A stretch of 43,002 nucleotides of DNA from a virus (taxonomy: Duplodnaviria; Caudoviricetes), in IMG/VR virus record IMGVR_UViG_3300005764_000034, positions 1-43,002 of that record. One strand, 5' to 3'. How positions within the stretch are numbered: the stretch's first letter is position 1; each line of letters opens with the position of its first letter. Positions 1 through 38,727 of the stretch are shown in pieces. The notes under the pieces are model-generated. The model was not told the origin of the DNA. It did no database searches and saw only the letters and a list, made by a program, of their open reading frames with translations. The position numbers and the translations under genes are program-made.

Positions 1-4
1 TGAG

Positions 5-214
5 ATGACCCCGGAACGCAAGGAGCAGGCGCAGATCGCCGTGGACATGATCGTCCACGGCTGCGCCGCGCTGGTCCTGATCGCCGCGGCGGCCGACGAG
101 AACGACGACGACGACATGGCGACGATGGTCTCCTCGCTGGAGGAGGTCACCGACGCGATGAGGATGCTGCTCGACGCGGCGAGGGGCCGCGTGGGCGGCC
201 GAAGGATCAACTGA
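5..214 (+). CDS. hypothetical protein (early region)
   Basis: 69-aa ORF with GC3-rich codons; its TGA is the start of repeat copy 1. Confidence 0.6.
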   Translation: MTPERKEQAQIAVDMIVHGCAALVLIAAAADENDDDDMATMVSSLEEVTDAMRMLLDAARGRVGGRRIN

Positions 215-261
215 CCCGCGAGGGAAGCGCCGACGCCGTCGGCGCTTCTCCCTGGGCCAGA
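211..261 (+). repeat. structured intergenic repeat, copy 1
   Basis: CTGACCCGCGA-GGGAAGCGCCGAC/GTCGGCGCTTCTC-CCTGGGCCAGA; degenerate leader box CAGAGGACAAACC before ATG 311. Confidence 0.9.
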
Positions 262-310
262 CACTCAGGGGTCGGCGGTATGAACGCCGGCCAATTCAGA
301 GGACAAACCT

Positions 311-634
311 ATGGATATTGCACGAAAGCGGGCGCGTCAAAACGCCTGGCTGAAGGCGCATCCCGAGACCGCAAGGCGCAACTCCATCGCGTACTATTGG
401 AGGCATCGAGAGAAGGTTCTCGCGCGGGCGAAGGAGCGTCGGAAGTTCCATGACGAGTTGCACGAGGCCGATCCGTCGTACGTGCAACCGCACAAGTTGT
501 GGCGTCTCCGCAATCCGGAAAGGGCCATGGAGCAGAACCGCAAAGCCTTCCGCAAGTGGGCGGCGAACGGTGTGGGCGCAGCATATCAACGCAATCGCCG
601 GGCACGCATCCGGCAGGAGGCACTCAATGGCTAA
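311..634 (+). CDS. basic helical protein resembling the N-terminal arm of phage HNH endonucleases (no nuclease motif)
   Basis: RBS GAGGA; Arg/Lys-rich motifs YYWRHREKVLAR, WRLRNPE, YQRNRRAR. Confidence 0.55.
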   Translation: MDIARKRARQNAWLKAHPETARRNSIAYYWRHREKVLARAKERRKFHDELHEADPSYVQPHKLWRLRNPERAMEQNRKAFRKWAANGVGAAYQRNRRARIRQEALNG

Positions 635-1250
635 CCATGGCTATCTGATCGACGCGGCCAATCGCGAGGTGCGGGAGGTCGAGTTCGAGACCGGCGAGCT
701 GCAGAAGCTCGTCGGCGGTTGGCTGACGACCGCCTGGACGTGGGACAGCGGCGACGTGCTGTTCGTCGACGACGAGGGGCTGCTCAAGGCGCAGGAGCAC
801 TTCTTCCTGTTCGCCCCGCGCCGCGACGGGCAGCCGATGGCCGGCAACGGCATGGTGGTCGGCCCCGAGGTCGAGGACGACGGGCCGCACGGATACCACA
901 ACGACCCGCCGGCCATCGCGCTCGACGAGCTGCGCGGGCTGGTGGCGTTCCGCGACCGCGCCTTCTTCGACGCCTGGGCGGCGACGCACGCCGGCGAGCC
1001 GGCGGTGACGGTGATGATGGTGGGCGACGGCTTCGAGCCGAAGGGCAAACCCGAGGTGTTGACGACGTACGGCGACATCGCGCGGGACATGCCCCGCCCG
1101 GTGATCGGCTACGCCATCGAGTCGGAGGACTTGGAGAAGATGCGGCAGATCGCCGACGTCCTGCACAGCGGCACCGACCGCGAGCGGCACCTCGGCCACA
1201 TGCTGTGGCTGGTCGTCTGCGCGGCGGAGAAGAACGCGATAGGGGGGTGA
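627..1250 (+). CDS. hypothetical phage protein (DUF3846-like)
   Basis: AGGAGG RBS before ATG 627; motifs LQKLVGG and DVLFVDDEGLLK. Confidence 0.6.
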   Translation: MANHGYLIDAANREVREVEFETGELQKLVGGWLTTAWTWDSGDVLFVDDEGLLKAQEHFFLFAPRRDGQPMAGNGMVVGPEVEDDGPHGYHNDPPAIALDELRGLVAFRDRAFFDAWAATHAGEPAVTVMMVGDGFEPKGKPEVLTTYGDIARDMPRPVIGYAIESEDLEKMRQIADVLHSGTDRERHLGHMLWLVVCAAEKNAIGG

Positions 1251-1252
1251 CG

Positions 1253-1435
1253 ATGGCGCCGCATCCGAACGCGCTCGCGACGATGGAGCGCAACAAGAGG
1301 ATCGCCGCCGATTACGCGAAGGGCGGCCGGACGCTGCGGGAGGTCGGCAAGAACTTCGGCATCGGCCCCGAGCGCGTGCGGCAGATCGTCCGCATGATGC
1401 GGCGCAAGCAAGGGATGGAGGCAACGAAGGACTGA
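1253..1435 (+). CDS. small sigma-70 region 4-like HTH DNA-binding protein
   Basis: RTLREVGKNFGIGPERVRQI matches the sigma r4 HTH pattern (TLxEVGxxFGxxxERVRQI). Confidence 0.75.
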   Translation: MAPHPNALATMERNKRIAADYAKGGRTLREVGKNFGIGPERVRQIVRMMRRKQGMEATKD

Positions 1436-1511
1436 CCCGCGAGGGAAGCGGCGCGCGACGCGCCGCTTCTCCCTGGGCCAGAATGGACTGACCAGGGAAC
1501 AGAGGACACCG
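1432..1511 (+). repeat. structured intergenic repeat, copy 2, with leader box
   Basis: CTGACCCGCGA-GGGAAGCGGCGCG/CGCGCCGCTTCTC-CCTGGGCCAGA then AGGGAACAGAGGACACCG. Confidence 0.9.
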
Positions 1512-1515
1512 AACG

Positions 1516-1887
1516 ATGGGCTTGGACATGTGGATGCGGACGACGCGGATCGTGCCGGACGCGGAGGTCGACTTCGACCTGCCGCGCGGCTCGACGCAGG
1601 AGCTGCACTATTGGCGGAAGCACCCGAACCTGCACGGCTGGATGGAGCGGCTGTACCGCGCGAAGGGCGGCAAGGCCGACGACTTCAACAGCGTGTACCT
1701 GCGGCTGACCGGGCGGGACCTCGACGAATTGGAGAAGGCGGTCGAGGGCGACGCGTTGCCCGAGACCGCCGGCTTCTTCTTCGGCGAGAGCGACGGCACC
1801 GAGGCGGCGGGCGACCTCGCCTGCATCGGGAAGGCGAGGGAGGCCATCGCCGACGGGCTGACCGTGCTCTACACGAGCTGGTGGTGA
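1516..1887 (+). CDS. conserved phage hypothetical protein (YWRKH motif family)
   Basis: MGLDM start, ELHYWRKHPNLHGWM, GFFFG and C-terminal YTSWW; follows the leader box. Confidence 0.75.
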   Translation: MGLDMWMRTTRIVPDAEVDFDLPRGSTQELHYWRKHPNLHGWMERLYRAKGGKADDFNSVYLRLTGRDLDELEKAVEGDALPETAGFFFGESDGTEAAGDLACIGKAREAIADGLTVLYTSWW

Positions 1888-2213
1888 TGCTTCTCGCGCT
1901 GCTCCTGCTGGCCGCCGCTCCGCCCGAGGCGGACGGCGCGCTGGCGCCGTGGTTCCACTCGCTGACCGTGCCGGACACGGGCGGCGAGTGCTGCGGCGTC
2001 GCGGACTGCCGGAACCTCCCGGTGCGCGCCGACGGCGAACGCTATTGGGTGCTGTACGACGGCGAATGGGTCGCCGTGCCGGACGACGCGGTACTCGACC
2101 GCGCCGACAACCCGACCGGCGACTACATCGTCTGCGTGCAGCGCGACTTCTGGCGCAACGGCGTGCAGCGCGGCCCGATGGTCCGCTGCCTCGTCAAGCC
2201 GCCTCGCACCTGA
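1887..2213 (+). CDS. putative exported Cys-rich protein
   Basis: TGATG coupling; hydrophobic N-terminus MLLALLLLAAA; CCGVADC and C-terminal RCL. Confidence 0.65.
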   Translation: MLLALLLLAAAPPEADGALAPWFHSLTVPDTGGECCGVADCRNLPVRADGERYWVLYDGEWVAVPDDAVLDRADNPTGDYIVCVQRDFWRNGVQRGPMVRCLVKPPRT

Positions 2214-2293
2214 CCCGCGACGGAAGGGCCGCGCACTCCGGTGCGTCGCCTTTCCGCCTGGGCCAGAACCCAGGGGAAAACAGAGGAACACCG
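2210..2293 (+). repeat. structured intergenic repeat, copy 3, with leader box
   Basis: CTGACCCGCGA-CGGAAGGGC/GCCTTTCCG-CCTGGGCCAGA then AACAGAGGAACACCG. Confidence 0.9.
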
Positions 2294-2297
2294 AACA

Positions 2298-3287
2298 ATG
2301 ACAACGAAGCAACCGCCCGTTTCGGTCAACCGGAACGGGCAGCTTGAGCTGGACCTGACGCGGCTCGCCAAATGGGACGCGTCGGTCGGCCGGGTGCGCG
2401 ACTGCATCCTCGAATGGATGATCTCGTCGCACGACTTCTCGCCGTACATCGGCCGGGGTCTGCCCGAGGCGGTGCGCGCCATGACGTGCACGCAGTTGGA
2501 GGTCGAGGCCATATCGCACTCCGCCCGCGAGGCGGCGCTGTGCGGCAGGCTGTTCGACTTCGGGCACCTGCCGAACGAGGTCATCAAGGAAGGCGCCAAG
2601 CGCGGCGGCAAGCTGTGGGACCAACACGCCCTCGGCATGCCGTTCGCCGAGCCGTGGGTGCTCTACCACACGTGGGAGGGCGGCACGGCGGTCTATCTCG
2701 TCGGCGAGCGTTCCGAGGGCGTCGTCGAGGTGTGCGAGTTCCAGCCGTTCGCGGTCGACGGGACGGGCATCCGGACGCTGGTCGTCGGCGACCGGGCGCA
2801 ATTCCGCCGCTCCGACGGCGACGGCTACCACGCGAGCGTGGTGCCGTTCCAGATGCGCTTCTTCGACGGGCTGCCGCCGGAGCTGAACCTCGGCACGACG
2901 CCCGAGGCCGCCGCCGCGTCGAACTGCGGCGACCCGGTGTGGGCTGCGCTGCTGATACTCAACACGCGGAACGTCGGACGCGAAACCATCCACGCCGACG
3001 CGAAGCTGCAGAAGGCCCGGGCGCGGAGCGGCAAGCCGCCGATCCCGCCGCACGAGCGCATCGACTCGCTGCCGTACGTGACGGCGGTGACGATGCGGGG
3101 CACGGCCCGCGAGCGCGTCGACCACGGCGGGCACCACGCCTCGCCGGTGCCGCACGTGCGTCGCGGCCACGTCCGGACGTACGAGAGCGGCAAGCGGTCG
3201 TGGATCGCCGACACGCTGGTCAACGTCGACGAGGCGACGCGCGGGAACTTCCTGCGGTCGCGGTCGCACTACGAGGTGAAGCCATGA
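2298..3287 (+). CDS. hypothetical phage protein with C-terminal SPxxHxRRGH motif
   Basis: ATG after leader box; HASPVPHVRRGHVRTY...WI motif, common in phage proteins. Confidence 0.7.
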   Translation: MTTKQPPVSVNRNGQLELDLTRLAKWDASVGRVRDCILEWMISSHDFSPYIGRGLPEAVRAMTCTQLEVEAISHSAREAALCGRLFDFGHLPNEVIKEGAKRGGKLWDQHALGMPFAEPWVLYHTWEGGTAVYLVGERSEGVVEVCEFQPFAVDGTGIRTLVVGDRAQFRRSDGDGYHASVVPFQMRFFDGLPPELNLGTTPEAAAASNCGDPVWAALLILNTRNVGRETIHADAKLQKARARSGKPPIPPHERIDSLPYVTAVTMRGTARERVDHGGHHASPVPHVRRGHVRTYESGKRSWIADTLVNVDEATRGNFLRSRSHYEVKP

Positions 3288-3439
3288 GGCTCGTGCTGGT
3301 GCTGTGGATCATGGTGATCGGCTGGCAGGCCAACAATTTGTGGCGCGCGTGGCGGGGCTGGAGAGCAGCCCGACACCGCAGCCACAAGCGGCCCATGAGA
3401 CCTCTGATGCTCACCTTCGACTGCTATCTGCGATGGTGA
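3284..3439 (+). CDS. small membrane protein
   Basis: ATGA coupling to the upstream stop; hydrophobic N-terminus. Confidence 0.4.
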   Translation: MRLVLVLWIMVIGWQANNLWRAWRGWRAARHRSHKRPMRPLMLTFDCYLRW

Positions 3440-3527
3440 GATTGATGACTACGGCTGGGACTGCGCTTCCGGGTGCATATGGAACCCGAGAGCGATCGCC
3501 TCGGTCGCCGCCGCGCGAGGTGCGGCC

Positions 3528-3605
3528 ATGATGATCGTGCTTCTGCTGGAGGTCCTGGTCGGCGCGCTCGTCATCGCGCTGATCGCGACCATCTGGCTTT
3601 ACTGA
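3528..3605 (+). CDS. 25-aa single-TM peptide (MMIVLLLEVLVGALVIALIATIWLY)
   Basis: GAGGTG RBS; its TGA abuts repeat copy 4; absent from the ORF track. Confidence 0.55.
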   Translation: MMIVLLLEVLVGALVIALIATIWLY

Positions 3606-3690
3606 GCGACGTTGACGGAAGCCGCGCCCGCGCGAACGGGTGGCGGTTTCCGCCTGTGCCGCTCCTGGCATGGGAGAACAGAGGGACACC
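3604..3690 (+). repeat. diverged structured intergenic repeat, copy 4, with leader box
   Basis: GAGCGACGTTGA-CGGAAGCCGC/GCGGTTTCCG-CCTGTGCCGCTC then GAACAGAGGGACACC. Confidence 0.75.
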
Positions 3691-3693
3691 TGA

Positions 3694-4260
3694 ATGAACC
3701 GAAGCGAACTGCTCGCCGTCGCGCTGGACGGCGGGGACCTCGCGGGCTGCGACGCGGAGGGGCACGACCTCTCCGGCGCGCAGCTCGGCTACTGCCGCAT
3801 GCGCGGGGCGAAGCTGGCGAACTGCGGGCTGGCCGAGACCGATCTGCACGCGGCCGATCTGCGCGGGGCCGACCTGTCGCACACCGACCTGCGGCTGACG
3901 AACTTCTCCGACGCCGACATGCGCGGGGCGATCCTCGCCGGGCCGGACCACATGGAACTCGCCTTCTTCGGCGGCGCCATCGGCGTCATCGACGCCGGGG
4001 TGAACCACGAGGGCGCGCGCTTCGTCGGCGTGCACCACGACGACGGGTGGATGGTGGCGGTGGCGCGCACCGGGTACTGGTCGATGTGGATGACGATGAC
4101 GGACGCGCTCAGGCACTTCCGCGCCGGCGGCGACGCCGACGCGCTGGCGCGGCTCGACCTCATCAACGAAGGCGGCAGGGCGGCCGACCGCGTCGCGGTC
4201 GACGGCGACCCGGTGCGCGAGGCGTTGGACGACGACTTCGCGGAGGAAGGCGGATGCTGA
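3694..4260 (+). CDS. pentapeptide repeat protein
   Basis: A(D/N)Lxx repeats: ADLRGADLSHTDLRLTNFSDADMRGAIL. Confidence 0.85.
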   Translation: MNRSELLAVALDGGDLAGCDAEGHDLSGAQLGYCRMRGAKLANCGLAETDLHAADLRGADLSHTDLRLTNFSDADMRGAILAGPDHMELAFFGGAIGVIDAGVNHEGARFVGVHHDDGWMVAVARTGYWSMWMTMTDALRHFRAGGDADALARLDLINEGGRAADRVAVDGDPVREALDDDFAEEGGC

Positions 4261-4481
4261 GCGTGTCGACGATCCTCGGCAACCTGCTGACCAACCTGCT
4301 CGACGAGAACACGCAGTACGTGCTGGTCGCCGTCGACCCGGAAGGGGAACTCGGCGGCGAGCACGGCGTGGCCGTCACCAACGTCCCCGACAAGGACGAG
4401 GTCGCGAACATCCTGCGCGAGGCCGCCGAGGCGATGAGGACCGGCATCCCGCGACGGAGGGACCGGCCGCCGCAGAACTGA
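4254..4481 (+). CDS. hypothetical protein
   Basis: overlapping ATG with GGAGG upstream; its stop is the TGA of repeat copy 5. Confidence 0.6.
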   Translation: MLSVSTILGNLLTNLLDENTQYVLVAVDPEGELGGEHGVAVTNVPDKDEVANILREAAEAMRTGIPRRRDRPPQN

Positions 4482-4565
4482 CCCGCGACCGGAGGGCGCG
4501 CGCCGCGAGGCGCGACGCCTTCCGGCCTGGGCCAGATGGACTGATCCGGGAACAGAGGAACACCG
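4478..4565 (+). repeat. structured intergenic repeat, copy 5, with leader box
   Basis: CTGACCCGCGA-CCGGAGGGCG/CGCCTTCCGG-CCTGGGCCAGA with GCGA tetraloop, then GGGAACAGAGGAACACCG. Confidence 0.9.
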
Positions 4566-4570
4566 AAAAC

Positions 4571-5206
4571 ATGGACAGAAAAGACATGCCAAAGGCGCGC
4601 CGCGCGTCCGCCGGCAAGGGCCGTTGGCGCGCGCAGACCGAGCACGACATGGCGTTCGCCGACGCGATGCTGGTCGAGACCGGCCGCGTGCTGCCGATGT
4701 TCGTCATCCACTCGGCGAAGGCGTCGTACGCCGTGCTGACCGGGTGGCGCGACGCCGACGACAAGCTCGCCGTCGCGCGGGTCATCAAGCTGTTCTGCAT
4801 CGCCAAGAACGCCGAGGCCCTGTCGTTCGTGGCCGAGGCATGGTCGGCGGCGATGCGGCGCAGGATCGGCGAGAGCGAGGCGGAGTTCGAGGAGCGCGCG
4901 ACCTCGCTCGCGCCGTCCGAGCGCGAGGACCGCGAGGAGGTCATCATCGCGGAGACCTCGTGGCGGGAGCGCGGCGAGGTCCGCTCCTTCGCGCTCATGC
5001 GCGTCATCGAGCGCGGCGCCGACGGCAAGCCGTCCGGCACGACGGCCGGGCCGCTGCCGGACGCCGACGCGATCGAGAGCTGGCGGAGCCGATGGGCCGA
5101 CCTGCTGCCGGAGCGCGCGCCGCGGCCGATGGAGGTGGCGATGGCGGAGCTGCTGCTGAGGGCGATGCCGGGCACGGGGATCACGGAGATCGCCCGTGAC
5201 AACTGA
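4571..5206 (+). CDS. hypothetical protein
   Basis: ATG after leader box; FVAEAW and SEREDREEVII motifs. Confidence 0.7.
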   Translation: MDRKDMPKARRASAGKGRWRAQTEHDMAFADAMLVETGRVLPMFVIHSAKASYAVLTGWRDADDKLAVARVIKLFCIAKNAEALSFVAEAWSAAMRRRIGESEAEFEERATSLAPSEREDREEVIIAETSWRERGEVRSFALMRVIERGADGKPSGTTAGPLPDADAIESWRSRWADLLPERAPRPMEVAMAELLLRAMPGTGITEIARDN

Positions 5207-5444
5207 CGTCGGGCGCGAGCTGCGCCCGGACGAGCTGCGGCCGAGGTCCATCGTCGTCGTGCATCCGCCCGGCTCGCCGGGCGTGCTGCTGACGATGTGG
5301 GTGCTCGCCGCGAACGGCGGCTACGTCACCTTCTACTCGGGGGTGACGAACACCGCCGTGGTCAACCGGATACGCGGCGACGGGAAGCTGGTCGACGACC
5401 GCGACCGCGTCGTGCGCGTGTTCGAGTACCTTGGGGAGCCCTGA
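5196..5444 (+). CDS. hypothetical protein
   Basis: GTG start with GGAG upstream; coupled to both neighbours. Confidence 0.6.
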   Translation: MTTDVGRELRPDELRPRSIVVVHPPGSPGVLLTMWVLAANGGYVTFYSGVTNTAVVNRIRGDGKLVDDRDRVVRVFEYLGEP

Positions 5445-5653
5445 TGCTGAACGAGAACCGCGTGCTCGACATCATCTTCGCCGAACTGCGGCGGATCGAC
5501 GTGAGGAGGCCGGACCCGCTGTCGCGCGAGATGCGCGCGTACCGCGAGGCCGCGCGACGGATAAGCCAGGAGGCCATGAGCGAACAGCGGCAGGCGGCGC
5601 GGACGGCGTCGCTCGCCGGCTTCGTGGTGACGAGGGGCCGGACGAGGCTCTGA
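5444..5653 (+). CDS. hypothetical protein
   Basis: TGATG coupling; its stop is the TGA of repeat copy 6. Confidence 0.55.
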   Translation: MLNENRVLDIIFAELRRIDVRRPDPLSREMRAYREAARRISQEAMSEQRQAARTASLAGFVVTRGRTRL

Positions 5654-5736
5654 CCCGCGAGGGTAGGGGATGGCGATGACAACCATCCCTTGCTCCCTGG
5701 GCCAGATGGACTGGGACAGGAAACAGAGGAGCACCG
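5650..5736 (+). repeat. structured intergenic repeat, copy 6, with leader box
   Basis: CTGACCCGCGA-GGGTAGGGGATGG/CCATCCCTTGCTC-CCTGGGCCAGA then GGAAACAGAGGAGCACCG. Confidence 0.9.
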
Positions 5737-5740
5737 AAAG

Positions 5741-6130
5741 ATGCCATTCGACGCTACACCAGTAGAGGCACCGGTAGAGGATACCGCGCTGACCAAGGCG
5801 TTGATCGCTGGCAAGGCGATGATCGCCGACAAGAACCGATGGACGAAGCACAGCGAGCAGGCGTGGGACAAAACGCGCGAGCAGTTCCGCTACTGCGCCA
5901 TCGGCGCGATCCGTTACGGCACGCGCGAGCGGTTCCGCGCCATCGGCGCGATCCGCCACGGCGGCACCGGGGACGCTATCGCGATGGACGCCATCAACTT
6001 TCTCAGTGAGGTGGCGCTGGACCTATGCGGCACGACGGCGCCGGACTTCAACGACCGGCCGACCACCGGGCACCTCATGGTGCTGCGGCTGTTCGACAAG
6101 GCGATCGAGCGGAGCCGGCTATCCGGCTGA
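5741..6130 (+). CDS. hypothetical protein (DUF6197-like)
   Basis: W-TK...YCAIGAI...FND....H..VL.LFD.AI pattern. Confidence 0.6.
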   Translation: MPFDATPVEAPVEDTALTKALIAGKAMIADKNRWTKHSEQAWDKTREQFRYCAIGAIRYGTRERFRAIGAIRHGGTGDAIAMDAINFLSEVALDLCGTTAPDFNDRPTTGHLMVLRLFDKAIERSRLSG

Positions 6131-6214
6131 CCCGCGACGGAAGGGCCACCGCGCAACGCGCGGTGCGCCTTTCCGCCTGGGCCAGACACGGCACGGGGGA
6201 ACAGAGGAGACACC
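6127..6214 (+). repeat. structured intergenic repeat, copy 7, with leader box
   Basis: CTGACCCGCGA-CGGAAGGGC/GCCTTTCCG-CCTGGGCCAGA then GGGAACAGAGGAGACACC. Confidence 0.9.
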
Positions 6215-6215
6215 T

Positions 6216-6587
6216 ATGACGATCAGACCACACGGGCCGCGCAAAGGCGGTCCGGTGCTGCGCGTCGTCGCGTCCGCCGAGGACGCGGCGGTGCCGGCGA
6301 AGGAGCCGAAGCGATGGCAGGGGACCGACCCGGTCTTCTTCCACCGCAGCCAGGTGAGGATAGGCACCGTGCTGCGCTGCTTCGGGCGGATCGACCACGG
6401 CGCGCTGTGGCGCGTCGTCGAGATCAAGACCTATCTGACCGGCCGACGCGGCGGCACCTACACGCGGCGGCTCGGCGAGGCGCGGCGGCTCGACGACGAG
6501 GTGGTGCTGAACCGCGTCGGGTCGAACGAGAACCGCTCCATGCGGTTCGCCAACCTGTCGTACTCGGCGATCTGGAGGATCGAATGA
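6216..6587 (+). CDS. hypothetical protein
   Basis: ATG after leader box. Confidence 0.65.
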   Translation: MTIRPHGPRKGGPVLRVVASAEDAAVPAKEPKRWQGTDPVFFHRSQVRIGTVLRCFGRIDHGALWRVVEIKTYLTGRRGGTYTRRLGEARRLDDEVVLNRVGSNENRSMRFANLSYSAIWRIE

Positions 6588-6769
6588 CGCTCACGTTCGA
6601 GCAGCGGCTGATGGCCGCCGTCTGGATGGTCGGCAACTGCGACACGGAGGAGGACAGGGGGCGGTGGTGGAAGGACCACGGCGGCCTGTGGAACGAGGTC
6701 GCGAAGCGCGGCGACGAGGCGCAGGCGTGGGCAGACGCGGTGGCGGCGGAGGCCGACGCGAAGGAGTGA
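6584..6769 (+). CDS. hypothetical protein
   Basis: ATGA coupling with GGAGG RBS. Confidence 0.6.
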   Translation: MTLTFEQRLMAAVWMVGNCDTEEDRGRWWKDHGGLWNEVAKRGDEAQAWADAVAAEADAKE

Positions 6770-6799
6770 CGCACCGATTGGACCGATTCACGACGACCT

Positions 6800-6845
6800 A
6801 AAGAGAGAGGCCCGACGTGTCCGCAAAACACGCCGGGCCTCTCTC
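6800..6845 (-). terminator. probable intrinsic terminator (minus strand)
   Basis: long stem GAGAGAGGCCCG-x-CGTGT/ACACG-x-CGGGCCTCTCTC, G-U paired only on the minus strand and followed by TTT. Confidence 0.55.
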
Positions 6846-7015
6846 CGTTCGGACGCGAACCTTCTCAAGGGAACAGAGGAACACCGTCGCCGTGACGGCT
6901 CGCATCCGCGCCCAATGTGGCGTCCGGCGCGCCGCGACGCAACCTCGTTCGCACGGAAAGGGGCCTGCACGAGACAGGCCCCCATTTGAGTCGCAGTCGG
7001 GAGGAAACGTCCGCC
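6800..7015 (-). ncRNA. candidate antisense sRNA carrying the complement of the early-gene leader box
   Basis: non-coding convergent region; minus strand contains CGGTGTTCCTCTGTTCCC (6869-6886); hairpins at 6960-6982 and 6803-6845. Confidence 0.35.
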
Positions 7016-7049
7016 GCGCCCTTAGCACGCGCGGCATGACGATTGCGAG

Positions 7050-7463
7050 CTACTTCGGGCCGGCGCCGCCGCCCGGGGTGAAGCCCCAGTAGATCGCGCC
7101 GTTGCTGTCCGAATAGAGGCCCCAGCCTCCCTCGGCCGGCGGCTCCTTGATGACCGTGCTCGGCGGCACCGGGGTCGGCAGGTCAGGCGGCAACTCCGGC
7201 GTCGGCGGCTCCGGCAGCGGGTGCCCTGCGATCGGCGGATAGCCGGGGCCGGGCGGCAGTTCGATGCCGGGCGGTCCCCAGATCGGGAAGGTCGGCGTGC
7301 CGGGCGGGCCACCGCCGCTCGGTGGCTGCTGCGGCGGGATGATCGGTCCGCCGCCGACGCCGAGGCCGGTGAGCGACGCCTCGCCGATCAGCACGACGTT
7401 CTGCGTGGTGCGCGCGAGCTTGTCGTAGAGCATGCCGGTGATGGTGACTTCGACTGCTGCCAT
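7050..7463 (-). CDS. proline/glycine-rich hypothetical protein
   Basis: AAAGGA RBS; PIWGPP and PPIAGHPLP motifs. Confidence 0.75.
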   Translation of the reverse strand: MAAVEVTITGMLYDKLARTTQNVVLIGEASLTGLGVGGGPIIPPQQPPSGGGPPGTPTFPIWGPPGIELPPGPGYPPIAGHPLPEPPTPELPPDLPTPVPPSTVIKEPPAEGGWGLYSDSNGAIYWGFTPGGGAGPK

Positions 7464-7608
7464 GACGTTTGTCCTTTCGGATGGAGGAGGAGTGCGTTCG
7501 TGCGGAGAGGCGAAGGCGGTGCCGCCTTAGCACGGCCCGCGCGCGCCGCCCACCCGAGGAAGCGGAAAGTTCACGACGCGGGTCGGCAGCGTGAGGTCGG
7601 TGCGCCGC

Positions 7609-7899: not shown

Positions 7900-8093
7900 G
7901 GCGCCGGCTCGCCGCCCGGCGCCTCCGGCTCGTGGACGACGTGGCGGACGCCGCCCGACGGCAGCACGACGTCGAACGGCGGCGGGCCCAGGCCGGCGAG
8001 CAGCATCGGCGTCTTGGGCAGCGGGCGCCATTGCCCGTCGGGCGTCACGTAACCCCACGGCAGCCCGTCGTCCTCGTCGAAGAACAGTGGCAT
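7896..8093 (-). CDS. hypothetical protein
   Basis: coupled to the helicase stop; MPLFFDEDDGLPWGY. Confidence 0.5.
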   Translation of the reverse strand: MPLFFDEDDGLPWGYVTPDGQWRPLPKTPMLLAGLGPPPFDVVLPSGGVRHVVHEPEAPGGEPAP

Positions 8094-9916
8094 CAGTTCC
8101 CCCTTCTCTGCTGTTCGTGCTCGGCCTGCGAGCCTTCCTCCGCGATGATCGCGTCGATGTAGCGGCCGGTGTGCTGGTCGAAGTCGATGACGCACTTGCG
8201 GCCCGGCGCGCCCCACAGCTTGACGACGCGCGACTTCCACACGTGCAGCTCGACGTGGCCGTCACGCTGGAACACGGTGAGGCCGAGGTCGCACTTGTTC
8301 AGCCAGTGCGCCGCGCCCGCGACGTCGTAGCCCTCCGGCGGCTCGCGATCCTTCTTCTTGCGCTTGTCGGACGGCGGCTTCGCCGGATGCGCGATCAGCC
8401 AGATGTTGCAGCCGTGCCGGCGCGAGAACGTGCGGCATTCGCGCAGCATGTCGCCGATGTACTCGATCTCGGTCCGCGTGCCGCGCTGGTGCTCAAGCTC
8501 GTTGATCGGGTCGATGACCACGTCGGTGACGCCGTCGCGCAGCACGCACATCGCCGCGGTGCCGAGCATCCAATCCATCGTCACGCGCTCCGTCTCCGGC
8601 ACGCCGTGGACGATGCGCACGTGCTTCGCGAGGAACGCCTCGGCCCTGGCGTCGTCCTCCTGCGTCATGGTGTCGAAGCCGGGCTGCGGCCAGAACGGCT
8701 TGCCGATCAGCCACGTCGCGCATTCCTGCTCGAAACGCGATGTCTCGTCCTCGCCCGCGAACACGAGGAAGCGGCGGTCGTATTTCCGGCAGACGTGCAT
8801 CATCAGGTGCCGCATGAACGCGGACTTGCCGTCGTTCGGGTAGCCGGTGAGCACGATCATCCGCCCGTCGGCCGGCAAATGCACCAAGCCGTCGACCGCG
8901 CGCACGCCGGCCGTCATCACGCGCGGCGGCGGCGCTTGGCGCATCCGCGCGAAGTCGCCGCTGCGCGCGCTGTGCACGCCCTCGATGGGGTACGGCACGG
9001 CGGCCTTGGCGTCGACGATTTCCGCGAAGGTGCGCTCGACGCGCAGGTCGGCGATGGCGATCAGCGTATCGTTCGCGTCCTTGCAGCCGTCGGGCCAGGT
9101 GACGGTGCGAACCTTATGCCGACCGAGCCGGCGGGCAAGTTCCTCGTGCCACATCGCGCCGGCCTCGTCGGCATCGCCCGCCAGGATGTGCGTCGGCACC
9201 TTTTCAAGCAGGTCCTCGTGCGTCTTCAATGCGAGGAACCGCGCGCTGTCCGCCCGCGCCATCGTCTTCGACGCGCCATCCCGCAGGGACACCACGTTCG
9301 GATAGCCGGCCTCGTGCATGGCGAGGACATCCGGTTCGCCCTCGACCCAGTACAACGGCCTTGCCGGATCGATGGAGTCGGCGTTGTACAGCACCGGCTC
9401 GCCGCCATCGTTCTCCTGGTACTGCGGGTTCTTTTCCGGGTGCGGGCGGAACTTGAGCGTCGCCAACCGTCCGCCGTGGAAGTACGGAAACACGACCGAC
9501 GGCCGCACGCCGCCGAGCTCGCGGTAGTGGTGGTCCTGCGCCCAAAGGCGGAAATGCCTGACCGTGCGCGCGCTGATGCGGCGGGCGCCGAAGAAGTCGA
9601 ACAGCCAATCCGGCTGCATGCCCGGTTCGCCGGAGCGATCGGCGAACACGGCGCGCTTGCGCGGCTGCGGTTTCGACGGCTTCTCCCATCGCGGCGCGCC
9701 GTCGCGGATGCGGACGTTGCCCTTCCACCCGCAGGTGCCGCGATGGCATTCCCACACCGCGCCCGATCCGTCGGCGTCGACGGTGACGGACAGCGATCCC
9801 TTCTCCTTGCGCGAGCCGCCGCCGCAGCGGTGGCAGTTGATGTGCTCGGTGCGGCCGGCCGCGAGGCTGCGCAGCCGGATGCCCTCGTCCGCGAGCAGCG
9901 CGAACAGGTCGCTCAC
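8093..9916 (-). CDS. DNA primase-helicase (Twinkle/T7 gp4-like)
   Basis: Zn finger CHRC...CHRGTC; TOPRIM WVEGEPD and DADEAG; Walker A GYPNDGKS; VVIDP; LIAHP; start at GTG 9916 (alternative ATG 9946). Confidence 0.92.
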   Translation of the reverse strand: MSDLFALLADEGIRLRSLAAGRTEHINCHRCGGGSRKEKGSLSVTVDADGSGAVWECHRGTCGWKGNVRIRDGAPRWEKPSKPQPRKRAVFADRSGEPGMQPDWLFDFFGARRISARTVRHFRLWAQDHHYRELGGVRPSVVFPYFHGGRLATLKFRPHPEKNPQYQENDGGEPVLYNADSIDPARPLYWVEGEPDVLAMHEAGYPNVVSLRDGASKTMARADSARFLALKTHEDLLEKVPTHILAGDADEAGAMWHEELARRLGRHKVRTVTWPDGCKDANDTLIAIADLRVERTFAEIVDAKAAVPYPIEGVHSARSGDFARMRQAPPPRVMTAGVRAVDGLVHLPADGRMIVLTGYPNDGKSAFMRHLMMHVCRKYDRRFLVFAGEDETSRFEQECATWLIGKPFWPQPGFDTMTQEDDARAEAFLAKHVRIVHGVPETERVTMDWMLGTAAMCVLRDGVTDVVIDPINELEHQRGTRTEIEYIGDMLRECRTFSRRHGCNIWLIAHPAKPPSDKRKKKDREPPEGYDVAGAAHWLNKCDLGLTVFQRDGHVELHVWKSRVVKLWGAPGRKCVIDFDQHTGRYIDAIIAEEGSQAEHEQQRRGN

Positions 9917-10641
9917 CAGTCGGTATTCCCGATGGCGGTCGCCCATTGGTCGGGCAGGTCCGCGACGTCGGGCGTTTCGTTCCGCTTGCGCTCGACGGCC
10001 AAGGCTATCTCGCCGGCGAGGATGCGGAGGCCGTACTTGACGAGGTCGTTGATCCCGTCCGCCTCGCGTGCGGCGAGCTTGGCGACCGCGAGGCCGATGA
10101 TCCGCGGGGTGGCATCCTTCCGCTTCCGCGCCTCGGTGACGAACGCATGCGCACGGTCCGCGATGTGTCCCACGTCGATCAGTCTCTGCACCCAGCGGTT
10201 GCGGTCCGGGTCCTGCTCCCTTGGCTTGCTTTCTGCGTCGGAAAGCATCGTCCTCGCGTGCGCGCTCGCGCGCGCGGCTTGCTGACTCTTCTCTTTGGTA
10301 AGGAAGAAAGAAGTACAGACTCCTAGCGTTGTGTCCGGATTTCCGGACAAAACCACGGAGCTACCGTCGTTGTGTCCGGATTTCCGGACAAAACTTTTGT
10401 CCGGATTTGTGTCCGGATTTCCGGACCTATTCAGGACGAACACGCTCGGCTGGCGTCTGTGGTGGCGGACCAAGAGGCCGCCTTCCGCAACCCATGCGTG
10501 CACGGCGTCGATCACGGTGTCCTTGTTCACGTCGGCGGCGTGGGCGATCTGGCGGTAGGTTGCCTCGGCCATGTCGCCGCCGTCGCACAGGCGGATGATG
10601 GCTTCGCGCACGAGGCGCTGCGCTGTCGGGAGGCGCCTCAT
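9913..10641 (-). CDS. replication initiator (N-terminal wHTH, lambda O-like layout)
   Basis: ATYRQIAHAADVNKDTVIDAV HTH; internal iterons; directly upstream of the helicase. Confidence 0.7.
   Translation of the reverse strand: MRRLPTAQRLVREAIIRLCDGGDMAEATYRQIAHAADVNKDTVIDAVHAWVAEGGLLVRHHRRQPSVFVLNRSGNPDTNPDKSFVRKSGHNDGSSVVLSGNPDTTLGVCTSFFLTKEKSQQAARASAHARTMLSDAESKPREQDPDRNRWVQRLIDVGHIADRAHAFVTEARKRKDATPRIIGLAVAKLAAREADGINDLVKYGLRILAGEIALAVERKRNETPDVADLPDQWATAIGNTDW
10328..10426. repeat. iteron cluster / probable replication origin
   Basis: three copies of the palindrome GTCCGGA-TT-TCCGGAC plus a half site, inside the initiator gene. Confidence 0.8.
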
Positions 10642-11003
10642 GAGCGGTCCTCCGGAATGCGCCAGCAGACGAGCGTGAGGCCCTTGTGCTGCGCGATCTC
10701 CAGCCAGACGCGCGCGTCCGGGTCGGCGGCGTGGTCGCAGGTCTCGCACCAGAAGGCGACGGCGATGCCGTTGCGCCGCGACGACGGATTGCCGCAGCCG
10801 TCGGAGACGGCCGAATGCGAGGCGATGCGGCCGCCGAGCACGGACGTGACCGTCGTGCGCTCGGCGTCCTCGCGGCGGTCGAACACGAGGACCTCGGTGT
10901 GGTGCAGATAGGGCCCGAGGCAGCGCGGGCAGGCCAGCGCCTCCTCGTCGAGGATCGTCACCGTCCGGTGGTCGTCGTCGTCATTTGAATTTGTCGCCGA
11001 CAT
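10638..11003 (-). CDS. Zn-ribbon hypothetical protein
   Basis: CPRC...LHH, NPSSRR, CETC, QHKG; GGAGG RBS. Confidence 0.65.
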   Translation of the reverse strand: MSATNSNDDDDHRTVTILDEEALACPRCLGPYLHHTEVLVFDRREDAERTTVTSVLGGRIASHSAVSDGCGNPSSRRNGIAVAFWCETCDHAADPDARVWLEIAQHKGLTLVCWRIPEDRS

Positions 11004-11325
11004 TTCACCCTCCACGCTGTTGCGCGACGGGCGGGGGCGTGCCATGTACGGAACGTCAGGCGTTCCGTCGCGGACCATCCCTCCGCGTCGTCGCAGGTTA
11101 CAAGGCGCCGTCGGTCTCAAACACCGGCGGCGTTCTTTCGTTGTACCCCGTACGCCGAAGCCGCCATCCTGTACCCGTTTGGCCGGGCTGTGAACCGGAA
11201 ACGCATCCAGCGTACGGAGCCGGATTTTCCGCGGCATTGAAGGCTTCGAGCGACTTATGCACAGCACCTTCGCAACGGACCGCCTCCAACAATTCCGTGA
11301 TCCGTGATCGGCGGCGCGTGCTCCG

Positions 11326-11535
11326 TTACGCCTTGCTGCGTTCGCGCACCGGCGGATGGAACTCGTGGACGACGGCGGCGACGCGGTGGCCGTCGATCGT
11401 CAGGCCGCAGGTGCGCGCGATCTGGCCGAACGACTCGCCCGCCTCGTGCCGCGCGTGCCAGACCTCGGCGAGCCTGCGGCGTTGCTCGCGGCCCTCGTCG
11501 CGCTTGACCGACGGCGGGCGCTTACGCTGCGGCAT
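11326..11535 (-). CDS. small HTH-like protein
   Basis: AGESFGQIARTCGLT. Confidence 0.45.
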   Translation of the reverse strand: MPQRKRPPSVKRDEGREQRRRLAEVWHARHEAGESFGQIARTCGLTIDGHRVAAVVHEFHPPVRERSKA

Positions 11536-11716
11536 CGCGTCGTCGCCGTCGCGGCGCCGCCTCGCTGACGAGCCAGGGCCAGCCCCGCGCGGTCGCGCAG
11601 GCGAGGCACCAATGGCGGTCCTTCGCGCCGCGCGACAGCATGACGCCGACCTCGACGACGGGCGCGGAGCCGGGCAGGAACACGACCGCCGGCGCCGCGC
11701 AGGTGTCGCAGGTCAT
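11522..11716 (-). CDS. small Cys-containing protein
   Basis: CDTC...CLAC; ATGA coupling. Confidence 0.5.
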   Translation of the reverse strand: MTCDTCAAPAVVFLPGSAPVVEVGVMLSRGAKDRHWCLACATARGWPWLVSEAAPRRRRRDAAA

Positions 11717-12342
11717 TCGTCGTCCGGAGACGGAAGGCTCACCAGTCCGCCCTCCTTCGGCTTCGGCATGGCGTCGCGGTAGTCGTAGAGCGGCCTGTCC
11801 TTGTCGAGCGCGATGGCGGCCATGTGCGCGACCAGTTTCACCTGTTCTTCGTATGCGTCGCTCGCGGCGGACAGGTTCAGCTCGTAGACGGAGAGCGACA
11901 GTTCCAAATGCCGTTGCGTGGCATATTGCCTGCCGACGCGACGGTGTCCGCCGGGCACGTTCGCGTCGGGGATGGTCACGAACGGCGGCAACGCCACGCC
12001 GGCCACGGTGAACAGGTCCGGCTGCTTTGCCTTGGCGACCGCCTTGGTTTCCTCGTCCTTCTTCTTGCCCTTTGGCTTGTCGTCCTCCTCCGGCGGCGGG
12101 CGGACGACGGGACCTTCCCGCCAGATATTGTCGAAGCATTCGCCGACCAAAGCCTGCAGCAGCTCGTCTGGCTTGAACCCCTTGCGGAATTTCGCCTTCG
12201 ACTGCGCCAGCATGCGGCCTTCCTCGCAGAAGCCGCCGAGCCTGTCCTTGTCGTCGATGTAGTCGAAGTACTGCCGCAGGCAGAACAGGTGGATCGTATC
12301 GTACGTGGTGCCGCTACGCGGTGCGCTTGGCTTTCTTGCCAT
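11713..12342 (-). CDS. hypothetical protein
   Basis: GGAGG RBS; MARKPSAPRSG start. Confidence 0.65.
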   Translation of the reverse strand: MARKPSAPRSGTTYDTIHLFCLRQYFDYIDDKDRLGGFCEEGRMLAQSKAKFRKGFKPDELLQALVGECFDNIWREGPVVRPPPEEDDKPKGKKKDEETKAVAKAKQPDLFTVAGVALPPFVTIPDANVPGGHRRVGRQYATQRHLELSLSVYELNLSAASDAYEEQVKLVAHMAAIALDKDRPLYDYRDAMPKPKEGGLVSLPSPDDE

Positions 12343-13243
12343 CCTTGCCTCCCCTTGCGTTGACGATCTGATCGATGACCTGGCCGACCTTGTCGAACCC
12401 GGCCCTGGCGCGTTCATACCTCTCGGCGAGCTCCTCGACACCGTCGCGGAAATACTGCTGCAGGTGGCTGTAGCCGTCCGGCGTGGCGAGCTGCGCGGGC
12501 AGCGCGAGCAGCGCGTCCGACCGGTCGAAGCCGTCGGCTCCGCGCAGCACGGACGCGAGCCCGAGCAGCGCCGAGTCCCGCGCCTCGCGCGTTGCGGCCT
12601 TCCTGTCTTCGATGATCTTGCGAGCCTCCGCGATGCCGATCTCGCGGTCGACGACGCGCTGCGCCAGGTCGCGGTCCTGCTTGCGCAGTTCGACAAGGCC
12701 AAGATCGCGGACCTCCGACCGATCCTTGATCTCCTTCGCCTTCTCGTAGGCGGCCTCGAGTTTCATCCCGCCATCGATGATACTTTGCACGACGGTCGGC
12801 GTGTACCTGGCGACGGTAAGCGCCCTGCTGAGCCGTTCCCCCGTTACTCCGGAACCCTTCGCAGCAAGAACGCACGCCTTCTGTTCGGCATCCGATCCGT
12901 TTTGCAATTTTGCAAAAAGGTTCTGTGCCGCAATCATCGCGAGCTGGCCCTTGTTGGTCTGCCGCCGCTTGCCGTTGACCGACCAGATCAACGCTTCGAT
13001 GTCGACGTCATCGGGCAGCACCTCGAACACCGGCTCGACGCCGGCCTTGTCGGTCGCCGCCAGCCGCATCCGCCCGTCGACCAGTGTGCCATCGCTCGAC
13101 ACGAGGATCGCATGGAATTGGCCGTTTTCCGCGATGTCGTCGACCAGTTCGTCGAACGCATCATCCGACAGCGGCGGGAACAGCTCCGCCAGCGGATGCA
13201 CCTTCGTCGGTCGCCAACCCTCGCTTCCCACCACGTCGCTCAT
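12314..13243 (-). CDS. ParB N-terminal (ParB/Srx) domain protein
   Basis: VHPLAELFP...ELVDDIAENG...LVDGRMRLAA...NGKRR. Confidence 0.8.
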   Translation of the reverse strand: MSDVVGSEGWRPTKVHPLAELFPPLSDDAFDELVDDIAENGQFHAILVSSDGTLVDGRMRLAATDKAGVEPVFEVLPDDVDIEALIWSVNGKRRQTNKGQLAMIAAQNLFAKLQNGSDAEQKACVLAAKGSGVTGERLSRALTVARYTPTVVQSIIDGGMKLEAAYEKAKEIKDRSEVRDLGLVELRKQDRDLAQRVVDREIGIAEARKIIEDRKAATREARDSALLGLASVLRGADGFDRSDALLALPAQLATPDGYSHLQQYFRDGVEELAERYERARAGFDKVGQVIDQIVNARGGKDGKKAKRTA

Positions 13244-13256
13244 TGTGTTCCTCCGT

Positions 13257-13793
13257 TCATTCGGCCGCCCACAGCGGCCCGGCCACCGGCATGACGCCGG
13301 CGACCCGTTGCGTGTGCCACAGCCACACCACGGCGGCGTCGGCGGCGTGGTGCGAATTGACCGCGATGCCGCGCCGCTTGCAGAACCGGTAGACCTCCTG
13401 CTTGGCCACGTCCTTGCCGAGCCGCCGCGTGCCCATGACCTCGGCGCGCGCGGTGTGCACGTCGACCTCGGAGAACGCCGCGCTGCACCGCCAGCACTCG
13501 GCGGCGACGAAGGCGCGCAGCGCGAACTGCTGGCAGGCGCTCCGCCAGTTGTTCAGCGCGGGCAGCGGCAGCGGCGCCTCGCAGACGACGGCCTCCGGTT
13601 GCCACAGGTCCATGTGCTCGGCGAGCACGTTCTCGAAGGCGGCATAGCGGGCGCCCTCGCCGCCGACGTGCGGCAGGTGCCACGTGCCGGTCTTCGGCAC
13701 CTTGTCGCCCCGGAGGTCGCCGATGGCCCAGCCGACCGTCGAAGACAGGTCCAGCGCCAGCACGCCGTGCAGCGGCCGGTCGTCGATCCACAC
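13257..13793 (-). CDS. RuvC-like Holliday junction resolvase
   Basis: VLALDLSSTVGWA, VVCEAP, K-x-x-AK, HHAADA. Confidence 0.75.
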   Translation of the reverse strand: MWIDDRPLHGVLALDLSSTVGWAIGDLRGDKVPKTGTWHLPHVGGEGARYAAFENVLAEHMDLWQPEAVVCEAPLPLPALNNWRSACQQFALRAFVAAECWRCSAAFSEVDVHTARAEVMGTRRLGKDVAKQEVYRFCKRRGIAVNSHHAADAAVVWLWHTQRVAGVMPVAGPLWAAE

Positions 13794-13798
13794 GGCCC

Positions 13799-14530
13799 CT
13801 ACTCGGCCGGCCCGGCGGACGCCTCCGTGCGGTCGCCCTGGACGTTCCTGGACCGCCTGGCGGCCGTCGGCCTGCGGGTGCCGCGGGCGGCCTTCCGGCG
13901 GCCTCCCTGGGCCTTCCTGGGCGCCTCCGTGGCGGCCTCCTGGCCGTCCGCCCGCCCGTCGGCCTCCGGGCCGTCCTGCGCCTCCTGACGGGCCGCGCGG
14001 GGCATGCCGGGGAAGCGGGTCTGGCGCGGCCGGCGGCGGGTGGCCGGCGCCTGCGTCGCGTCCGGCCCCAGCTCCTTCGAGCGGCTCTCCTGGCCCTTGT
14101 GCCACCACGACAGCCACTCGGCGTGCAGCATCGAGCCGATCTCGTACGGGCATTCCGCGATGTCGGTGCCGTGGCGCCCGGCCTGGAAGCCGGCGTCCTC
14201 CGCGTCCCACACGTCGTCCAGCTCGCGCGCCTTCTCGGTGACGCGCGGCGTCCAGCCGTCGAATAGCGTTTCACGTGAAACCGGGATGTTGCGCAGGGCG
14301 TAGTAGCGCGTCGTGTCGCGCAGCTCGGCGACCGCCTCCTGCGGGTCCATCTTCCGCGCGCGCGACACGGCGGTCAGCGCGGCGAGGTTGACGCCGTCGG
14401 CCTTGGCCCGCTTGCGGATGTTGCGCAGCACGCCCTGCTCGACGTCGCAGACGCGTTTCTGCGTCTCGTATTCGCGCATCCATTCCTGGATCGTCTCGTT
14501 CGACACGTTCGACCGCACCGTCTCGGACAC
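13799..14530 (-). CDS. GapR (DUF2312)-like protein fused to an Rmf-like motif
   Basis: LRNIRKRAKADGVNLAAL..RKMD; GFQAGRHG...CPY...EWLSWWHKGQ; GGAGG RBS. Confidence 0.6.
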   Translation of the reverse strand: MSETVRSNVSNETIQEWMREYETQKRVCDVEQGVLRNIRKRAKADGVNLAALTAVSRARKMDPQEAVAELRDTTRYYALRNIPVSRETLFDGWTPRVTEKARELDDVWDAEDAGFQAGRHGTDIAECPYEIGSMLHAEWLSWWHKGQESRSKELGPDATQAPATRRRPRQTRFPGMPRAARQEAQDGPEADGRADGQEAATEAPRKAQGGRRKAARGTRRPTAARRSRNVQGDRTEASAGPAE

Positions 14531-14559
14531 TGTCGCCTCCGCATGGGGATGATGGGCGG

Positions 14560-14660
14560 AGATTGCGCGCGGCGCGGCGCGCCGGTCAACAACGGAAACG
14601 TCAACGGAAGCATTGATTATCGGATTGACGCTGCATGCCAGCCGAGGCATTGTTTGATGA
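14560..14660. promoter_or_regulatory. divergent promoter region
   Basis: + strand TTGACG(14625)-N17-CATTGT; - strand TTGACC(14589)-N17-GCAATC; repeated GTCAAC and AACGGAA. Confidence 0.55.
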
Positions 14661-14675
14661 AAGGAGGAACGACGG

Positions 14676-15218: not shown

Positions 15219-15237
15219 AGGCGAAGGGGAAGAAGGC

Positions 15238-37028: not shown

Positions 37029-37031
37029 CGG

Positions 37032-37896: not shown

Positions 37897-38089
37897 TCCC
37901 CACCTTGATGAAATCCAACGGACCGTGGTTGCTGCTGATGCGGACCACGCGGGTGCGCGGGCTCTGCGCCATATCCGCCCATCCCCAGGTCTGTTCGACG
38001 AAGCGGTATGCCTCCGACCAGTCCATGCCATCGGGCACCTCGACCCTGCGTTCGAGTGTCGCATGGAAGCGGACGATGTACTCCGCCAT
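37886..38089 (-). CDS. hypothetical protein
   Basis: coupled small ORF. Confidence 0.5.
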   Translation of the reverse strand: MAEYIVRFHATLERRVEVPDGMDWSEAYRFVEQTWGWADMAQSPRTRVVRISSNHGPLDFIKVGNGA

Positions 38090-38717: not shown

Positions 38718-38727
38718 GACCGTGTCC

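Follow-up and report, generated by a model that had tools for sequence, protein, structure and literature searches.

The stretch of DNA analysed here, called the window below, comprises all 43,002 nucleotides (nt) of IMG/VR virus record IMGVR_UViG_3300005764_000034 (Duplodnaviria; Caudoviricetes), a partial myovirus genome (CheckV 55%). Its early region is an array of small gene units separated by seven copies of a structured RNA element. Judged from modelled stems and predicted ends, these elements are probably nick sites for RNase III resembling those of phage T7, each mRNA unit being left with a hairpin at both ends; that the element is a cut site of one kind or another seems quite likely. 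A sequence-only reading of the array had offered three mechanisms, namely an RNase III-type processing site, an antitermination or protein-binding site, and a recombination module by which genes are shuffled like cassettes. The first of these is the best supported, by the signature of the upper stem, the register of the predicted cut, a second fold, and the exchange of the element for a ribozyme in a relative.

An exact search with the arm pattern CTGACCCGCGA-N20-50-CCTGGGCCAGA gave six matches, at 211, 1432, 2210, 4478, 5650 and 6127, all on the + strand, and none in 100 dinucleotide shuffles of the window. A diverged seventh copy was located at 3606-3662 by a covariance model (E 2e-4), and pattern search, shuffles and model thus agree with the six full copies and one diverged copy described earlier. 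The long hairpin forms in all seven copies (z-scores of -3.2 to -5.5). Other particulars of the sequence-only reading also held: an open reading frame (ORF) ends at the TGA of each full copy (at 214, 1435, 2213, 4481, 5653 and 6130), a leader box and a new ATG follow all seven copies, and the first inner pair is G-C in copies 1, 2 and 6 and C-G in copies 3, 4, 5 and 7. The TGA of the diverged copy (3603-3605) likewise closes an ORF, a hydrophobic one of 25 codons at 3528-3605. Beyond that reading, the present analysis found a second, mutually exclusive hairpin, an eighth box lacking an ATG, a trailer, and an extra copy upstream of base 1. The array and its elements are as follows.

5..6769, + strand: array of about 17 small genes, mostly of unknown function, in units of 1-3
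211..260, + strand: copy 1; TGA 212-214, upper stem 222-250, 3' arm 251-260; predicted nick after 250; alternative hairpin 251-269; leader box about 294-308; ATG 311
1432..1481, + strand: copy 2; predicted nick after 1471; alternative hairpin 1472-1496; box 1496-1511; ATG 1516
2210..2266, + strand: copy 3; predicted nick after 2256; alternative hairpin 2257-2274; box 2277-2293; ATG 2298
3602..3665, + strand: copy 4, diverged, with another lower stem and the AAG of the upper stem unchanged; predicted nick after 3652; alternative 8-base-pair hairpin 3653-3674; box 3675-3690; ATG 3694
4478..4535, + strand: copy 5; predicted nick after 4525; alternative hairpin 4526-4550; box 4549-4565; ATG 4571
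5650..5705, + strand: copy 6; predicted nick after 5695; alternative hairpin 5696-5720; box 5720-5736; ATG 5741
6127..6185, + strand: copy 7; predicted nick after 6175; alternative hairpin 6176-6197; box 6198-6213; ATG 6216

Pattern scans of viral and metagenome contigs yielded at least 27 homologous elements in which no more than one of the first 10 inner pairs is broken. The covariance model was built on 33 elements, and later tallies use 66 or 73-76; a weak hit in record G002 (66747) was kept out of the 66-element set, and locus L090 was dropped as an element carrier, its match being due to chance. With the 33-element model, clusters of 5, 10, 13 and 13 copies, each on a single strand, were found in four complete related records (G001-G004), all of them myoviruses with portal or sheath families in common. 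Among the 120 pattern matches listed from a bacterial genome collection there was no element with a paired stem and a leader, and in the cultured phages of INPHARED neither two element-plus-leader queries nor an array protein of 329 amino acids had a real match.

Pairing of the stem is a selected feature and not an artefact of the filter that defines the elements. When all 204 distinct matches to the arm pattern were considered, at all loci, the inner stem was paired in every one of the 32 with a leader box and unpaired in 171 of the 172 scored without one, the sole paired match in the latter class being copy 1 of the window, whose box is degenerate. In the 33 elements 97.3% of cells are paired and 82 double-sided changes occur, against 22.7 in shuffles, figures that do not represent a probability, the set consisting of related sequences chosen for pairing. 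Rfam 15 at its gathering threshold gave no hits in the window, 10 related loci or 4 boxA test loci. A covariance model and an Rfam search had been proposed as checks; their outcome, a covarying stem and no match to an Rfam family, bears out the earlier description of a conserved sense-strand RNA element outside the named families. Positions 2-4 are a stop triplet in all 66 elements (UGA in 57, UAA in 8, UAG in 1), and pair 3 covaries. Two copies at the related locus L420, found after this tally, deviate from the triplet, one of them lying in the operon leader and the other starting CUGG. The stop, which closes the longest upstream frame in 65 of 76 elements, lies 6-7 nt from the upper stem.

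The features of the upper stem point to RNase III. This enzyme needs about 22 base pairs (bp) of double-stranded RNA, 11 on each side of the cut (PMC3867540), and the element provides the two helical turns with a lower arm of 10-11 nt and an upper stem of at least about 11 bp. Across the 66 elements A-U is kept at +4 in 41, A-U or U-A at +5 in 58, and a 5'-strand G at +6 in 63, and the proximal-box preferences are found in one fixed register (D in 58 of 66, E in 63 of 66). Half-sites were scored with a matrix of pair counts from 85 E. coli stems that undergo double cleavage in vivo (PMC6212723 Table S4). Among the sense registers the highest score, 2.02 bits, goes to the one in which the 3' strand is cut where the upper stem meets the 3' arm (A' at +1), all others scoring 0.05 bits or less; 37 of 3000 column permutations scored as high (P ~0.012). 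The best downward half-site lies one step higher, which is the offset that a dimer cut requires. Another register, with the cut directly after GCGA, scored -5.3 and was rejected. An RNase III contact with G at +3 has been reported (PMC9291653), as has the nicking of one strand in irregular stems, by which 3' hairpins that stabilise the RNA are left (PMC3867540). No RNase III domain was present in any of five phage records, and the enzyme would therefore be supplied by the host.

The second fold identifies the same base by another route. The 3' arm has two mutually exclusive partners, the arm with the stop codon and a covarying segment of the leader. When RNAs are folded with the first base of this arm as nt 1, the hairpin begins at that base in 71 of the 75 distinct elements and at nt 1 or 2 in every one, compared with a mean of 48.75 and a maximum of 58 (of 75) for hairpins from nt 1 with shuffled leaders. 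For variant arms (CCUGC, CCUAG, CCUCG, UCUGG) the native leader is a better partner than other leaders in 31 of 35 cases, and three of the four misses are CCCCG arms. Even the diverged copy in the window retains the second hairpin, with 8 bp in other letters. The RNase III register and the start of the second hairpin are thus two separate lines of evidence for one base as the new 5' end.

A third line comes from the leader of the operon, which has been sequenced in eight relatives. In five of these, a descriptor search (CUGANGA/GAAA core, stems I-III, NUH triplet) found a putative type III hammerhead directly before the box of the first gene; two of the hits have an extra base and one is U4C. 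The one in L399 matches RF00008 with E 5e-4 and 29.8 bits, below the gathering score of 48.5. Neither a hammerhead nor an element stands immediately before the first gene in G003 and G004. In the L420 leader the element itself occupies the place of the hammerhead (covariance model, 29 bits, E 3e-8), which supports its role as a cut site. Pair 2 of this copy is C-G instead of U-A, there is no stop codon, and the +5/+6 pattern and the second hairpin are retained; the stop codon thus reflects an overlap with coding sequence and not a structural need. Outside the array leader, the descriptor also matched another hammerhead-like motif (U4C core) on the reverse strand of G004, about 9357 from the record end.

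The early RNase III sites of T7 (R0.3, R0.5, R1, R1.1 and R1.3) are likewise hairpins between early genes, and share with the element the succession of upper stem, weak zone and lower stem. At the cut positions that we take to apply to the five T7 sites (the T7 records carry no RNase III annotation), D is A-U and E is G-C in five of five, with the spacing seen in the element. On the sequence and structure features that can be compared, the element is thus predicted to work like a T7 early site. It differs in that its 3' arm would cap the product, whereas T7 products fold at -0.3 to -6.8 kcal/mol with no consistent 5' cap; in copy number, complete relatives having 5-13 elements each, in myoviruses without an RNA polymerase; and in the phage-specific box that comes after every site and has an antisense counterpart in the operon leader. 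Together with this operon context, the covarying second fold would make the element a variant of the T7-type site.

A sequence of events can be proposed on this basis. The long hairpin would form first, during transcription, and RNase III would read the A-U, A-U/U-A and G-C/G-U pairs at +4, +5 and +6 of the upper stem and cut the 3' strand at its foot, for example after window position 1471. The lower stem, weakened by A.C, G.U and a bulge and also stripped by a ribosome stopping on the inner UGA, would then open, and the freed 3' arm would pair with the leader, the ribosome-binding box staying single-stranded. One long early transcript would in this way be converted into units of 1-3 genes, each with the upper hairpin at its 3' end and a new 5'-terminal hairpin.

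Several observations weigh against an RNase III site. The matrix is permissive, and an antisense reading of the hairpins scores higher, 2.82, at another register; it is also derived from E. coli and may not fit the host, a putative alphaproteobacterium, and the copies scored are not independent. Position B (+3) is mostly G-C or G-U (58 of 66), and the 3'-strand G is kept at +10 (59 of 66) and not at the J position, +11. As long as the RNA is uncut, the leader hairpin is the predicted dominant fold in 45 of 74 elements, against 26 for the long hairpin, so that the RNase III substrate would have to be co-transcriptional or transient. The capping part has no T7 precedent, the T7 sites lacking a consistent 5'-terminal hairpin. 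Finally, when the folding energy of the whole element is considered, the antisense strand is the more stable one in 25 of 33, since there the two conserved A.C mismatches are G-U pairs. The earlier statement that G-U pairs favour the sense strand consequently stands for the variable wobbles (33 G-U against 2 A-C over inner pairs 1-8 of 33 elements; 64 against 7 at +1 to +10 of 66 elements) and falls for the energy of the element as a whole.

The same two folds could serve without any cut. A ribosome at the UGA would melt the lower stem and flip the RNA to the two-hairpin state, and this translation-coupled switch would tune reinitiation on, or the stability of, the next unit. The invariant stop triplet of the 66-element set with its covarying third pair, the upstream frames that end there, the short distance from stop to upper stem, and the closeness of the two states in energy are all to be expected of such a switch. 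In the folds, however, the box is single-stranded in both states, and the switch would be without an obvious output. The leader copy in L420 has neither a stop nor an upstream gene, with all else kept, the CUGG copy there also departs from the triplet, and several G004 copies come after a gene that has already ended. Since the fixed pairs at +4, +5 and +6 and the substitution for a hammerhead would also be left unexplained, we consider an uncut switch rather unlikely.

Cleavage might instead be due to another agent, either a new self-cleaving ribozyme fold or another host nuclease, such as Mini-III or an RNase P-like activity cutting the leader hairpin at its 5' foot. The replacement of the hammerhead in L420 is compatible with this, and the 5' arm has CUGA...GA before a stem, reminiscent of the hammerhead core. 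The conserved letters nevertheless lie in helices, variants with CUAA..UA break a core of the hammerhead type, and the element has no GAAA and no stem I. As for RNase P, the +1 base would be C, and no RCCA tail follows the second hairpin. The pattern of the upper stem, moreover, fits the RNase III rules, and a cut by a different agent is in our judgement improbable. A hammerhead acting in trans was also considered and ranked low.

A third possibility, derived from the cassette proposal, is a single-strand recombination site like attC, or a homology module like the PeSLs, by which gene units are swapped. In integrons, attC has a GTT core and a bottom-strand hairpin with extrahelical bases, and the cassette flanks are complementary. 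Like attC, the element is a hairpin separating gene units, with a variable top and a fixed base that contains a stop codon; some copies read CTAAC...GTTAG with AAGC/GCTT inner boxes, similar to the attC motif. The relatives carry common gene families in different order, and the boxes are phage-specific, which shows homogenisation. On the other side, the tyrosine recombinase family PF00589 was absent from five related records (four of them complete) and from the window proteins scanned; most copies lack the GTT core, the 3' arm mostly ending in GCCAG; flanks pair with the flank of the preceding element in 12 and 13 of 63 cases, no more often than expected (0.20 and 0.29), unlike cassette flanks; and the wobble bias lies on the sense strand. 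The unit companions of a family differ between phages, and units therefore do not travel intact; families are reshuffled within units as well. In four runs the DNA contigs contained no joint at an element, contigs of this kind revealing presence only, and the available relatives are too distant for a comparison of breakpoints between close relatives. A survey of 243 alphaproteobacterial genomes reportedly found no integrons (PMC4889954). Copies may now and then recombine through their homology, but with no tyrosine recombinase, flank complementarity or joints, and with families reshuffled within units, cassette shuffling as the main function is very unlikely.

Readthrough or recoding at the stop codon, fusing neighbouring genes, is more improbable still: the stop is followed by C and, 6-7 nt on, by a stable stem, and in 35 of 73 elements (26 open) the next ATG continues the frame of the stop, above the one third expected, an excess possibly due to shared ancestry, yet 38 of the 73 starts are out of frame, each unit has its own strong Shine-Dalgarno sequence, the loop is variable, and the element also occurs outside a coding context. 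A SECIS-like readthrough signal was considered too and ranked low. The least credible alternative is a composite of terminator and promoter giving each unit its own transcription start, as in the PeSLs of T4-like phages (PMC4122927, PMC2839356), which join a terminator stem-loop to an early promoter, are repeated structured intergenic modules (PMC4122927) and, like the element, lie in a variable region with shuffled genes; an intrinsic terminator does stand directly before one G004 element, but unlike a PeSL the element has no promoter, no U tract follows either hairpin, no sigma-70 match or + strand terminator was found in window positions 1-7600 (a scan that alphaproteobacterial promoters can escape), the spacer between the arms varies, G004 has a single strong promoter upstream of its array, and no phage RNA polymerase was among the proteins scanned.

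With RNase III processing as the preferred function, the element can be placed among other signals of the operon. Each phage has its own box consensus, extending beyond the Shine-Dalgarno core and repeated up to 14 times. All eight sequenced leaders carry, about 100-200 nt before the first start codon, a sense-strand complement of the phage's own box, here called the anti-box. That of G003 pairs at -18.3 kcal/mol with its own boxes, at -9.9 to -12.5 kcal/mol with nine of ten other sets, and at -16.4 kcal/mol with the single L405 leader, and the anti-boxes of other phages reach -11.2 to -13.3 kcal/mol at best on G003 boxes. Specificity is thus clear for the most divergent phage, G003, and weak among the similar phages of the ACAGAGG type; an 18-nt anti-box scan matched only G001 itself. 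Within G001-G004 the anti-box pairs at -18 to -20 with array boxes and at -9 to -15 with other Shine-Dalgarno starts. In local folds of seven of the eight leaders it also pairs in cis with the first box, forming the 5' strand of the helix, and on this model its role may be purely in cis, the downstream boxes being duplicated copies. At ~9111 and ~11312 of G002 (L434), box-like leaders also stand before genes that do not belong to the array, close to a Gam-like and a ParB-like gene, which hints at a genome-wide regulon.

The C4 RNA of P1 and P7 is a parallel: an antisense segment of a larger transcript that is released by processing and partly occludes ribosome-binding sites (PMC5320573). Unlike C4, the anti-box is one stretch instead of two loops, has up to 14 targets, also pairs in cis with the first box, and would be released by a hammerhead or the element where C4 is released by RNase P. 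The C4 fold of three stem-loops with a' and b' loops was not found for the anti-box, in keeping with the Rfam result for the 10 related loci.

The leaders of five of the eight relatives contain TCTTTGACA exactly, mostly followed by TGAAT; G003 and L420 lack such a motif. It resembles published boxA consensuses (PMC5725501, PMC13753749), with putative NusB/E binding, and is similar to the 16S leader in one of two alphaproteobacterial genomes read (a Rhizobiales genome). A boxA pattern search of five alphaproteobacterial assemblies matched no rRNA locus. The suggestion that the repeated element might be an antitermination signal is not borne out, the boxA-like motif being located in the relatives' operon leader and not in the element.

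Exact complements of the leader are found at the 3' end of the array, with 17 nt in G001 (+9.7 kb), 20 nt in G002 (+10.3 kb) and 14 nt in G003 (+8.9 kb); those of 13 nt in G004 and 12 nt in L399 are of a length that arises elsewhere by chance, and rest on their position and an adjacent box-like stretch. The G003 trailer (L443 ~10850-10885) lies inside the terminator hairpin at the end of the operon, where pairing with the leader would compete with termination. G003 (L441-L442) is a relative of 107 kb with Que/deazaguanine DNA-modification genes, its own DNA polymerase and a different box; despite this box, and with no boxA-like motif, it retains element, anti-box and trailer. In G004 one strong sigma-70 promoter (11/12) is upstream of the whole array, and the intrinsic terminator mentioned above (L447:6721-6738, - strand) lies inside the array after a PEP-CTERM gene, implying leakiness or antitermination. 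The end of the operon in the window is laid out as follows.

6773-6795, + strand: trailer, complementary to a segment of the L420 leader (16 bp + 4 bp, -34.8 kcal/mol)
6803-6845, + strand: long hairpin after the last gene (z -8, one A.C mismatch, no U tract), between trailer and orphan box; possibly a further RNase III site or a roadblock
6868-6886, + strand: eighth (orphan) leader box without an ATG, pairing with the L420 anti-box (-22.2 kcal/mol); possibly a decoy
6959-6983, + strand: G+C hairpin with a weak U tail at the operon end, not called by the terminator scan; possibly a terminator

The contig start falls inside the array, and the window has no operon leader of its own. A contig of 4329 nt from run X1 spans window positions 1-3564 and has an additional element-plus-leader copy about 570-650 nt before base 1, so that the array is longer than the window. 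The L420 leader (6460-7160) holds an anti-box, an element copy (6666-6711, - strand) and the segment complementary to the window trailer. L420 has the same G+C content (69%), and ParB-like and methyltransferase genes diverge from its leader as in the complete relatives. Run X4 holds both the L420 and the window stretches, and no overlap between the two was found; L420 may be the upstream part of the window phage or of a close sister.

In phage lambda, where the N leader contains a nut boxA and an RNase III site, the repression of N is relieved by RNase III. Translational repression by a Nus loop is described for suhB and lambda N (PMC5725501), and rRNA operons combine boxA antitermination, a leader-trailer helix and RNase III (PMC10250234). 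The relatives' leader has the boxA-like TCTTTGACA..TGAAT in common with the rRNA operon and the lambda N leader, and the leader-trailer complements (12-20 nt, 9-13 kb apart) in common with the former; unlike in the rRNA operon, leader and trailer enclose a protein-coding array, and an N-like protein was not identified. These analogies suggest a tentative and, on balance, doubtful model in which the early region is an antisense-gated circuit, organised like an rRNA operon and governed by one RNA. A boxA-loaded, antitermination-competent transcript would be cut at every element, and the 5' leader RNA would be freed by the hammerhead or the element, its anti-box pairing with the ribosome-binding box of every unit. 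The leader RNA could be a repressor acting in trans, or a polymerase-tethered strand handed from unit to unit. Once transcription is complete, the 3' trailer and the orphan box would capture it by toehold pairing, and this capture would switch the translation of all units together.

The protein scan showed sheath, baseplate, tape-measure, primase-helicase, Erf-, Gam-, RuvC- and ParB-like genes in the window; head and terminase genes were not found in this contig, which CheckV rates as partial. Families among the array genes include DUF3846, helix-turn-helix (HTH), pentapeptide-repeat and DUF6197. The window proteins at 13799-14530 (- strand) and 16817-17266 (+ strand) presumably resemble GapR and GcrA, a likeness that would point to an alphaproteobacterial host. 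A proline/glycine-rich ORF of 137 amino acids at 7050-7463 (- strand), with no family match, converges on the array end. The larger gene blocks are these.

8093-16512: replication and recombination block (primase-helicase, ParB-like, RuvC-like, Gam-like, Erf-like)
29116-40452: tail sheath and baseplate genes

In the literature, with subscription journals and bioRxiv supplements outside the search, no description of the element or of the operon-wide circuit was found, nor of the element among the INPHARED cultured phages. As a processing site, the element would extend the design of the T7 early mRNAs to a group of uncultured myoviruses, the source phage being from soil. To that design it would add the predicted self-capping step, one arm first building the nuclease substrate and then capping the product, and with the exact cut base predicted the element may be of use in synthetic operons as a portable insulator. 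Of wider interest is the set of operon-level features in the relatives, where a repeated box is accompanied by an antisense copy of it in the leader, a boxA-like motif, a ribozyme and a distant trailer. The leader anti-box would let one RNA control all the mRNA pieces and, if functional, the circuit would provide protein-free co-regulation of a large and fast-changing set of early genes.

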